A stretch of DNA of 64,000 bases from Candidatus Multivorans sp. (GTDB lineage: Bacteria; Acidobacteriota; Thermoanaerobaculia; Multivoradales; Multivoraceae): contig OZ244152.1 in assembly GCA_965216125.1 (NCBI GenBank), positions 899,035-963,034 of the forward strand. Reading direction: 5' to 3'. Made by a program: the position numbers and the translations under genes. The notes under the pieces are model-generated. The model was not told the origin of the DNA and searched no databases. It saw nothing but the letters and a program-made list of their open reading frames with translations. Positions 14,249-18,722 of this stretch are shown here, piece by piece. The number at the start of each line of letters is the position of its first letter. Within the stretch, counting starts at the first letter, position 1.

Positions 14249-15598
14249 TCATCGCTTCCCGGCCCAGTAGTCTAGAAGCTGCGGCTTCGGTTTGGGTGGG
14301 ACTATCACGTCGTCGATCTTGTGAGGCGGTCGTATCGACCCGATGTCTGGGAAGCTGAGGCCGTAGGCCACGCCCAGTCGTTCCATCGCGTCAGTGGAGG
14401 GCGTCTCGTCACCCCAAGCGTCCAGAGTTGACGACAAAGCCCTGTAACGGAAGAGCGAAACACTCTCCGCAAGCTGACGGATGGCGTCCTCCGAATTTCT
14501 TCCAGCTCTACCCACCAGATCAAAGCCACGACCGCCGCCGGTCACGAACACCTGCAATCCATCTCTCCAGTGAGGGGCCAGAGGATCCCTCAGCTTCCTA
14601 AGGCGCCAGAATAGCTTCACGAGCGCCTTGGTCACGTCACCTAGATACTCGTCGTCGATCTTGTTCAGCGCTTCGCGAATCTCGACGCCTGGCCGCTCGA
14701 CGTAGTCCAAGGCCCGTTGCGGGATCACCGCGAACGGCCCAGCCTCCCGAGATGGCACGCCCGGTCGCGGCCGACAGCCTGCCTCCTCCGTCTTCGCCAA
14801 GCGTTTGACATGTACCTCCAGGACATCCAAGCGCTCCACGAGAGCCGTCAAGAGCTCGTACCGATCGTCCCCCTGCCGCTCGTGGAGCACGAAGCCACAA
14901 ACATCGATCGTCGAGGCACCAACGTCGACGATGACATGCAGACCATCCCGCCGCTCCCTGGCCCGTGCGTAGCCGGCAACCTCGGCAACGATCTCCGGCA
15001 CGACCTCAAGTAGAACGTCCTGGTCGGAGGGATCGGAGACTAGGAGTGCCGCCACCGCGTCCTTCATGGTCGGCGCTTCCCTCCGCAGCGAAAGGCGCCA
15101 AGCTGCGCGGCCGACGGCGAGAAAGCACTCCCGCGTCTCGTCGTCGTCGTAGCCGGCCGACGGGATGCCCAGGTTCACCGCCCAGCGAATCACGTACTTC
15201 CCGTATACGTCGGCCTGTTTGTCGAGTACGTACTGCCGAGAGGTCCGAAGAACCCACGCCAAGTAGGCAGCCGCCAAGGCCCGAGCATCTCGGGAGCCGG
15301 GCCGGTCCAGGAGATCGACCTTCAGGTCTCGGTTGGAGAAGTCCGCATCGGCCGGCACCTGGAAGCCGCCACTCTCGGCGCTCTGCAGGGTCGTCGGCAA
15401 CAGGAACGTGTCGCGGCCTTCACCGTCCGGCCACTTCACGACGACCGCATTCCCCCGTCCAAAGTACGGACTGCGAACCACGACCTTCGCGCTGGAAGTG
15501 CCGAAGTCCAGGCCGACGACCAGATCGACCGTCTCGCGTGGCGACCGGTACCGAGTGACCGTGGCGTCGACAGCGAGAGCCTGAGTCCAATGCAGCAT
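14249..15598 (-). CDS. ASKHA-superfamily (actin/Hsp70/PilM/FtsA-like) ATPase-fold protein, function unknown
   Basis: 450 aa; phosphate-1 VVGLDFGTSSAKVVV, phosphate-2 VIVDVGASTIDVCGF, adenosine VFVTGGGRGFDLVG. Strong RBS GGAGGTAAGGAGAAG; start 8 nt after the stop of the upstream SNF2 gene. Confidence 0.6.
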   Translation of the reverse strand: MLHWTQALAVDATVTRYRSPRETVDLVVGLDFGTSSAKVVVRSPYFGRGNAVVVKWPDGEGRDTFLLPTTLQSAESGGFQVPADADFSNRDLKVDLLDRPGSRDARALAAAYLAWVLRTSRQYVLDKQADVYGKYVIRWAVNLGIPSAGYDDDETRECFLAVGRAAWRLSLRREAPTMKDAVAALLVSDPSDQDVLLEVVPEIVAEVAGYARARERRDGLHVIVDVGASTIDVCGFVLHERQGDDRYELLTALVERLDVLEVHVKRLAKTEEAGCRPRPGVPSREAGPFAVIPQRALDYVERPGVEIREALNKIDDEYLGDVTKALVKLFWRLRKLRDPLAPHWRDGLQVFVTGGGRGFDLVGRAGRNSEDAIRQLAESVSLFRYRALSSTLDAWGDETPSTDAMERLGVAYGLSFPDIGSIRPPHKIDDVIVPPKPKPQLLDYWAGKR

Positions 15599-15608
15599 CA
15601 ACTTCTCC

Positions 15609-18600: not shown

Positions 18601-18722
18601 AACTGGATCTGCCACTTGGGGACGCTGCCGTAGTTGCGGGATCGCCCGGTAGCCACACCGATGCGGCCCGGATCGTGCTTGAGTCGGTAGCGCCGGCCTG
18701 CCTTGATCTCAACGTCAAGCAC
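15609..18722 (-). CDS. RapA/HepA-like SNF2-family ATPase/helicase with N- and C-terminal extensions
   Basis: 1037 aa; GTG start; SNF2_N motif [16 protein letters not shown] (note GKM, not GKT); motif II [30 protein letters not shown]; helicase-C block [44 protein letters not shown], very close to E. coli RapA. About 350 aa C-terminal extension of unknown fold. Confidence 0.85.
   Translation of the reverse strand: [1037 protein letters not shown]

Follow-up and report, generated by a model that had tools for sequence, protein, structure and literature searches.

Organization of the SNF2–ASKHA locus

We analysed a 64,000-nt stretch of the genome of Candidatus Multivorans sp. (Acidobacteriota; contig OZ244152.1, positions 899,035 to 963,034), hereafter called the window, in which a gene for an SNF2-family ATPase is followed closely by a gene for an Hsp70/actin-fold (ASKHA) ATPase. 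A first-pass annotation, made from the sequence alone, had proposed the two as a coupled module, and its coordinates were reproduced by open reading frame (ORF) calling and translation. Both ORFs are on the minus strand, with the SNF2 gene at 15609-18722 and the ASKHA gene at 14249-15601. The SNF2 gene starts with GTG and encodes 1037 aa. The ASKHA gene could start at a TTG, yielding 450 aa, or at an ATG at 15598, yielding 449 aa; the NCBI-sourced protein P0001 uses the ATG. The SNF2 stop codon TAA (15611-15609) is separated from the ASKHA start by 7 nt (TTG) or 10 nt (ATG), and not by the 8 nt given previously. The ribosome-binding site expected in this gap was found as AAGGAG at 15610-15605. 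The features of the pair are as follows.

15609..18722, minus strand: SNF2-family ATPase gene, 1037 aa; predicted DrmD/BrxHII/RapA-like paralog of the clade that partners with ASKHA (ORF, Pfam, PADLOC, NCBIfam)
18552..18701, minus strand: N-terminal conserved segment, residues 8-57; kept in 17/17 aligned homologs
17787..18374, minus strand: SNF2 ATPase lobe 1, residues 117-312 (Pfam PF00176)
18335-18321, minus strand: Walker A, GLGKM (motif coordinates checked)
18321..18323, minus strand: codon 134 of the SNF2 gene, within the Walker A motif; ATG (Met) here in place of the Thr usual in the family, GLGKT (homolog alignment)
17984-17973, minus strand: DEAH box (motif coordinates checked)
16863..17195, minus strand: SNF2 ATPase lobe 2, residues 510-620, including motif VI (Pfam PF00271, Helicase_C, E 3e-21)
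15612..16685, minus strand: SNF2 C-terminal region, residues 680-1037; long helix, alpha/beta domain, long coiled-coil hairpin, terminal beta-hairpin
15605..15610, minus strand: AAGGAG ribosome-binding site of the ASKHA gene, overlapping the SNF2 stop codon (sequence)
14249..15601, minus strand: Hsp70/actin-fold (ASKHA) ATPase gene, 450 aa, of a family without a name
15491..15517, minus strand: phosphate-1 motif VGLDFGTSS; G30, D32 and G34 invariant (alignment A1)
14903..14926, minus strand: phosphate-2 motif DVGASTID; D226, G228, T231 and D233, together with E203, invariant (A1)
14525..14545, minus strand: adenosine-binding motif VTGGGRG; G355-G357 invariant (A1)

Conservation of the pair

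A single-sequence scan of genome contigs recovered no relatives, and an alignment-based scan was needed, which yielded 31 ASKHA loci at one genome per species. A full-length SNF2 homolog (42-60% identity) was located directly upstream of ASKHA in all 27 loci with upstream DNA. These loci are distributed over Acidobacteriota, from which the closest relatives come, Planctomycetota, Desulfo/Deltaproteobacteria, Spirochaetes, Gemmatimonadota, Binatia, Ignavibacteria and Latescibacterota. The reverse test, starting from the SNF2 side, found ASKHA immediately downstream in 3/3 picked homologs (47-49% identity). The same arrangement occurs on two conjugative alphaproteobacterial plasmids, pAA03 of Aminobacter aminovorans (WP_067969856.1 and WP_157097306.1) and p1 of Sphingobium sp. 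CAP-1 (WP_155187947.1 and WP_140043504.1), in which the ASKHA proteins are only 26-30% identical to that of the window and the SNF2 proteins score 790 and 720 bits against PDLC02623, a PADLOC sub-model for DrmD.

The two genes are tightly coupled in the homologs, usually overlapping by 1-4 nt or lying no more than 25 nt apart. The identities of SNF2 and ASKHA to the window copies are correlated (r = 0.89, 25 loci), which fits inheritance of the two as a unit. No third conserved gene was found; all other ORF clusters vary from locus to locus. Most copies are chromosomal, the phyletic spread is patchy, and the neighbourhood is different at each locus. These observations establish that the SNF2–ASKHA pairing is conserved and not a product of chance. 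The two-gene module postulated in the first-pass annotation is thus borne out: the genes remain neighbours in related genomes, and no well-characterised family accounts for their pairing. The pair is widespread and apparently an undescribed variant of SNF2-based defence modules, probably related to those of the DISARM type. Searches of open-access papers and preprints turned up only CnuD of CoCoNuT and the DISARM, ARMADA and BREX papers, none of which describes a pair of SNF2 and Hsp70/actin-like proteins.

The SNF2 protein is related to DrmD, BrxHII and RapA

Pfam identified an SNF2-rel_dom (residues 117-312) and a Helicase_C domain (residues 510-620) in the SNF2 protein. The DrmD sub-model PDLC02623 of PADLOC matched residues 11-1012 with 795 bits, and the NCBIfam model DISARM_DrmD (NF038317) matched residues 56-1013 with 362 bits. 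The N- and C-terminal extensions, previously described as unique, therefore align end to end with DrmD models. The NCBIfam equivalog cut-offs are 610 bits for DISARM_DrmD, 576 bits for RapA (PRK04914) and 500 bits for DpdE. The window protein reached 156.6 bits against RapA, which places it outside that family, and 176 bits against DpdE, while the BrxHI and BrxHII models of PADLOC gave 121-204 bits. RapA is the closest solved structure by sequence (E 6e-44). Because the protein scores 362 bits against a cut-off of 610, while a second SNF2 protein at loci L013 and L019 passes that cut-off (991 and 697 bits), it is classified from its sequence as a full-length DrmD/BrxHII/RapA-type paralog of DrmD, and not as an equivalog.

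In a comparative study (PMC12839542), BrxHII and RapA are described as combining a Tudor domain and an SNF2 core with an alpha+beta domain and a restriction-endonuclease-like fold that is inactive. By analogy, it is plausible that the window SNF2 shares this layout, and its overall architecture is probably common with that of RapA (HepA), the RNA-polymerase-associated SNF2 ATPase. Residues 8-57 probably form a small Tudor/SH3-like beta-barrel. A profile of this segment searched against the PDB gave KOW/SH3-like ribosomal protein matches that were not significant (E 0.4-1.6), so the Tudor label stays an analogy with BrxHII and RapA. The SNF2 motifs are invariant throughout the family, apart from Walker A residue 134 of the window. 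No nuclease signature was found in the C-terminal region, and neither the SNF2 nor the ASKHA protein contains a recognisable nuclease domain.

One relative has a different N-terminus. In P0179 (L037 7001-10324), the usual N-terminus has given way to a PLD (PLDc_2) domain of ~295 aa; the SNF2 core and C-terminus to which this domain is joined are 68% identical to those of the window SNF2. P0179 directly follows DUF1156 methylase and AAA_15/21 genes, and the L037 contig ends at this protein.

The ASKHA protein is predicted to be an active, NBD-only ATPase

All three ASKHA motifs reported by the first-pass annotation were located, and a PEI(V/A)AE motif upstream of phosphate-2 aligns with INEPTAAA of DnaK. 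Neither Pfam nor NCBIfam produced a match to the protein at E ≤ 0.1. Its sole PADLOC match was PDC-M61B (E 7.5e-4), covering ~55 residues around the phosphate-2 motif; the homolog on plasmid pAA03 matched the same model with E 3.6e-4. PDC-M61B is a different family from the window ASKHA, the shared match being short and of borderline significance. A word-indexed homology search returned 235 ASKHA homologs. When 1.84 billion cluster representatives were searched exhaustively with a profile, 2663 matched at E ≤ 1e-3, and 1089 still did so at E ≤ 1e-30. At the latter threshold, the family comprises at least 1089 clusters at 50% identity.

The AlphaFold2 model, built from a 33-sequence alignment, was confident (predicted local distance difference test 86, predicted template modelling score 0.86). 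In the fold comparison, ParM-type proteins scored 15-19, eukaryotic Arps 14.5-16.7 and sugar kinases ~16 or lower, and the nucleotide-binding domains (NBDs) of Hsp70 proteins outscored the ParMs. Hsp70 homologs also ranked first in a Foldseek search against viral structures. An hhalign comparison with the DnaK NBD, in which the probability was low because the template was a single sequence, placed ASKHA residues 199-251 on DnaK 167-219, with E203, D226, T231 and D233 on DnaK E171, D194, T199 and D201, in agreement with the fold result. The model and the invariant motif residues support the ASKHA assignment: the protein has the Hsp70/DnaK NBD fold with its catalytic residues, and the fold of the bacterial actins (MreB, ParM, FtsA, PilM, MamK) is likewise recognised in it. 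Since the NBD keeps the nucleotide-binding and hydrolysis residues, the protein is predicted to be an active ATPase.

The model consists of the NBD only; the C-terminal substrate-binding domain of Hsp70 is absent from the 450-aa protein, which has no Pfam HSP70 match. No ParR, PilN or FtsZ partner gene adjoins the pair, either in the window flanks or at the other loci. In most ASKHA homologs, an amphipathic, W/R-rich helix is present at the N-terminus (e.g. MSWWSRFRRLAEQ), followed by a variable, basic, low-complexity linker, disordered and up to ~200 aa long (alignment A1; L035 8449-9000; L036 8392-9000). The window ASKHA and its two closest relatives are without both elements, which could serve as a DNA or membrane tether. 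A 975-aa protein at L013 (3415-6342) contains two tandem ASKHA domains, with a basic, Pro/Ala-rich disordered linker between them. This fusion suggests self-association into a dimer or oligomer.

Relation to DISARM, ARMADA and other known systems

A second SNF2 gene was found near the pair at L012, L013, L016, L019, L024, L032 and L034, and at about 7 of 32 loci the pair is located within or beside DISARM class 1 or ARMADA-like arrays. At L012, L019 and L024, the second SNF2 gene is followed by an Eco57I-type N6-methylase of 1500-1800 aa, which matches DrmMI and type IIG models. L024 further encodes an upstream DEAD/Helicase_C/MZB (YprA/DruE-like) helicase, and the pair sits between this helicase and the second SNF2. 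This array has the gene order of type I ARMADA (YprA-like helicase, SNF2, methylase) with the pair inserted. A NERD+UvrD/GajB-like helicase is present at L013 and a PLD protein at L034.

The window contains none of these partners. In tblastn searches of its 64 kb, no match was obtained for the YprA/DUF1998 helicase of L024, with Pfam also detecting none in the flanking genes (no DrmA or DrmB), for the three Eco57I-type methylases of L012, L019 and L024 (no DrmMI), for the L034 PLD protein, with Pfam scans also detecting no PLD (no DrmC), or for the UvrD-like helicase. Neither the ArmC YprA-like helicase nor the ArmB PglX-like methylase of ARMADA types I and II is in the window. The first-pass annotation recognised no named system, DISARM included, in this pairing. 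DrmA, DrmB, DrmC and DrmMI are indeed missing from the window, but the ~7/32 loci inside DISARM- or ARMADA-like arrays show that the pair is not independent of DISARM.

The resemblance to DrmD of class 1 DISARM includes full-length homology and, at some loci, a position beside canonical DrmD and DrmMI-like genes. The differences are the score below the DrmD cut-off and the fact that, where both occur, it is the other SNF2 that passes. As judged from these comparisons, the ASKHA-partnered SNF2 is a paralog in its own right, present at some loci within DISARM class 1 or ARMADA-like arrays, and PADLOC probably holds PDLC02623 as "DrmD" because of this. The papers defining class 1 DISARM and ARMADA describe no Hsp70/actin-fold (ASKHA) component. 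ArmA of ARMADA and BrxHII of type 3 BREX belong to the same RapA-like SNF2 helicase class as the window SNF2 and are paired with PglX-like methylases, whereas the window lacks both a methyltransferase and a YprA-like helicase.

An Hsp70-like NBD has been reported in CnuD of the McrBC-derived type III CoCoNuT, as a non-chaperone part of a predicted NTPase-motor defence system. CnuD combines an NBD and a substrate-binding domain, degenerate ATPase motifs and an McrB GTPase partner; in contrast, the window ASKHA is an NBD only, with intact catalytic residues and an SNF2 partner.

The Walker A allele and decayed copies

The window SNF2 has Met at position 134 of Walker A, where 33/33 aligned homologs have Thr, as do the near-identical metagenome copies P0121 and P0375. 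The change requires a single C-to-T transition (ACG to ATG). Since the Walker A Ser/Thr of P-loop NTPases coordinates Mg2+, the window copy is probably ATPase-impaired, possibly a dead allele, unless the substitution is a sequencing error. The Met134 allele is unsuited for experimental use.

Pseudogenised copies of the pair are common among the loci, and we count them as a sign of mobility or dispensability. SNF2 or ASKHA is broken by a frameshift at L001 (7336-9796), L014 (5556-9452) and L011 (10001-11246), and a sister-strain contig (P0375 and P0377) carries a frameshifted copy. L030 and L031 (~10000-10700), from one Vicinamibacterales genome, contain ASKHA fragments only, without SNF2.

The pair recurs in defence contexts

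We scanned with PADLOC the 98 proteins encoded within three genes of the pair at 24 loci, setting apart the second SNF2 proteins (n = 4). Strong matches were obtained for AbiEii (two loci), type I-D Cas3, NERD+UvrD, ShosA, PD-T4-4_A, WYL, PDC-M72A and PDC-M47A. A dense defence island is found on the conjugative plasmid pAA03 of Aminobacter aminovorans (L035, record positions 55150-74310). There, genes for a restriction endonuclease, an AAA ATPase and a RecB-like nuclease flank the pair on one side; Hachiman (HamA and helicase), another restriction endonuclease, AbiEii and a DUF6088 protein are encoded on the other. Together with the DISARM/ARMADA-like arrays, the PLD-SNF2 fusion P0179, the frequent decay and the low-GC island that the window pair shares with hicAB, this genomic context suggests a possible defence role of the pair.

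A low-GC island and its surroundings

The pair shares a ~5-kb block with two small genes.

18768..19206, minus strand: hicA and small upstream antitoxin-position gene, part of the low-GC island (Pfam; GC/GC3)
18768-19010, minus strand: hicA (HicA_toxin PF07927, E 1.8e-15)
18985-19206, minus strand: small gene at the HicB position, 73 aa (DUF7387, E 1.2e-7), overlapping hicA by 26 nt

ASKHA, SNF2, hicA and its partner have 62-63.5% GC and 0.70-0.77 GC at third codon positions (GC3), compared with 65-71% and 0.84-0.89 in the genes flanking the block. The lower GC content noted by eye in the first-pass annotation is thereby confirmed, and the block is a compositionally foreign island. No integrase, adjacent tRNA or flanking direct repeats were found around it, and a promoter and terminator scan gave no signals above chance level. 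A HicA toxin domain with a small upstream antitoxin gene identifies hicAB, although the 73-aa protein matched DUF7387 and no HicB model in the Pfam scan. hicAB is absent from the neighbourhoods of the other SNF2–ASKHA loci and shares with the pair only this island.

A Pfam scan of the flanking genes identified PhoU, PhoR, PhoB, a phosphate porin and an S9 peptidase on one side. The other side holds HicA with the small antitoxin-position gene, a ceramidase-like protein, an acyl-CoA dehydrogenase and an AAA_14/DUF4143 protein. The hicBA, S9 peptidase and ceramidase-like neighbours named earlier are thus present. The AAA_14 and DUF4143 ATPase is encoded at 21982-23142 on the minus strand. Divergent from it on the plus strand is a 541-aa ORF (23353-24978) of lower GC3 and without a Pfam match. 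A second low-GC stretch (41010-47743, 61-64% GC) is probably another mobile insertion. It contains two ORFs without a Pfam match (41010-42191 and 42191-43195), an IS21 IstB-like ATPase (44267-45130) and an IS110 transposase (46064-47125), and adjoins a tRNA-Gly/Tyr/Thr cluster (47472-47743).

A proposed function and its alternatives

We propose that the pair is a self-contained, horizontally mobile module acting as an anti-phage or anti-plasmid system, or as an autonomous offshoot of DISARM or ARMADA, and we assign this reading a probability of about 0.55. Its first gene would supply a DrmD/BrxHII/RapA-type SNF2 motor, in which the ATPase core is combined with a small N-terminal beta-barrel, a coiled-coil hairpin and an alpha/beta domain that is not catalytic. 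Its second gene would supply a dedicated NBD-only Hsp70/actin-fold ATPase in which the nucleotide-binding and hydrolysis residues are kept. We infer that the two proteins form a complex, in which ASKHA may sense or regulate, in an ATP-gated manner, for the SNF2 translocase. This motor would be directed at invading DNA or its nucleoprotein complexes. It might strip or stall the replication or transcription machinery alone, or alternatively hand the DNA to nucleases from adjacent arrays or the host. Two analogies guide this model without proving it, namely CnuD and the actin/Arp modules of eukaryotic SNF2 remodellers. A more specific version, which we consider quite unlikely, would make the pair an immune or anti-plasmid module that is autonomous and free of nucleases. 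ASKHA, as the obligate partner of the SNF2 translocase, would dock on it and gate it by nucleotide state, as a prokaryotic functional counterpart of the actin/Arp modules of INO80, SWR1 and SWI/SNF. By the same analogy, the tandem fusion at L013 might point to a dimeric arrangement resembling actin-Arp4 or Arp7-Arp9.

Several observations weigh against a defence module. Neither protein contains a recognisable effector, many neighbours are housekeeping genes (e.g. Trp synthase, aldehyde dehydrogenase), and the defence context is a listing of neighbours rather than an enrichment over the genome background. ASKHA is outside PADLOC except for the borderline PDC-M61B match. At about 25 of 32 loci, no DISARM/ARMADA partner lies within 10 kb, and some of the frameshifts may be errors of long-read assembly of metagenome-assembled genomes instead of real pseudogenisation. 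No homologs were found in phage genomes or IMG/VR viral contigs, and on this result a phage-encoded origin was set aside.

The pair could instead be an accessory sensor or regulator of methylation-based DISARM-, ARMADA- or BREX-like systems, with the stand-alone copies being leftovers or acting in trans with nuclease or restriction-modification systems encoded elsewhere in the genome. This would explain the ~7/32 loci at which a bona fide DrmD, a large N6-adenine methylase, a PLD protein or a helicase of the YprA-like or UvrD-like kind accompanies the pair. It would also explain the position at L024, where the YprA-like helicase lies on one side of the pair and the second SNF2 on the other, and the lack of a nuclease in either protein. 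However, the ~25 loci without a partner within 10 kb, and the window without one in 64 kb, argue against dependence on such systems, and both genes are full-length and conserved at stand-alone loci; we regard an accessory role as unlikely. A closely related question is whether the window copy is an orphan, decaying remnant of DISARM, that is, a DrmD left after the loss of drmA, drmB, drmC and drmMI, with ASKHA incidental. The PADLOC DrmD match, the T134M substitution in Walker A and the frameshift in the sister strain are in keeping with decay, but ASKHA is strictly conserved with this SNF2 clade over several phyla. Because a different SNF2 passes the DrmD cut-off in the DISARM-like arrays, the pair is its own unit. 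The adjacency data largely refute the remnant, which we hold to be very improbable.

RapA is a vertically inherited housekeeping gene, and we know of no ASKHA partner for it. A housekeeping function would have the RapA-like motor and the Hsp70-like ATPase clear or recycle stalled RNA polymerase or protein-DNA complexes in transcription or repair. The nearest solved structure is indeed RapA, whose Tudor/SNF2/inactive restriction-endonuclease-like architecture, also described for BrxHII (PMC12839542), agrees with such a function, as do the lack of an effector domain and the housekeeping genes among the neighbours. Against it stand the NCBIfam RapA score of 157 bits below the cut-off of 576, the patchy phyletic distribution and changing neighbourhoods, the low-GC island of the window, the copies on conjugative plasmids in defence islands, and the frequent pseudogenisation; together, these make the housekeeping role decidedly improbable. 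Maintenance or segregation of plasmids or other mobile elements, with ASKHA as a ParM/Alp-like filament former, has hardly any likelihood: most copies are chromosomal, neither a ParR-like adaptor nor centromere repeats could be found, Hsp70 NBDs score above ParMs, and the Sphingobium plasmid already has ParAB. The mobile defence module is accordingly our preferred reading, at the probability given above.

Significance

DrmD/BrxHII/ArmA-type SNF2 helicases are core parts of several defence systems and are mechanistically poorly understood. Newly found candidate defence gene pairs are common; here, a sister clade of these helicases has been identified that always travels with an Hsp70/actin-fold ATPase. 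The ASKHA family merits a hidden Markov model of its own, and matches to PDLC02623 should not be taken as DISARM. If the pair is functional, the ASKHA ATPase would be a new component type in SNF2-based immunity, and the pair would account for PADLOC "DrmD" hits outside complete DISARM systems. It would also offer a simple two-protein bacterial model of an actin-fold ATPase regulating an SNF2 motor.

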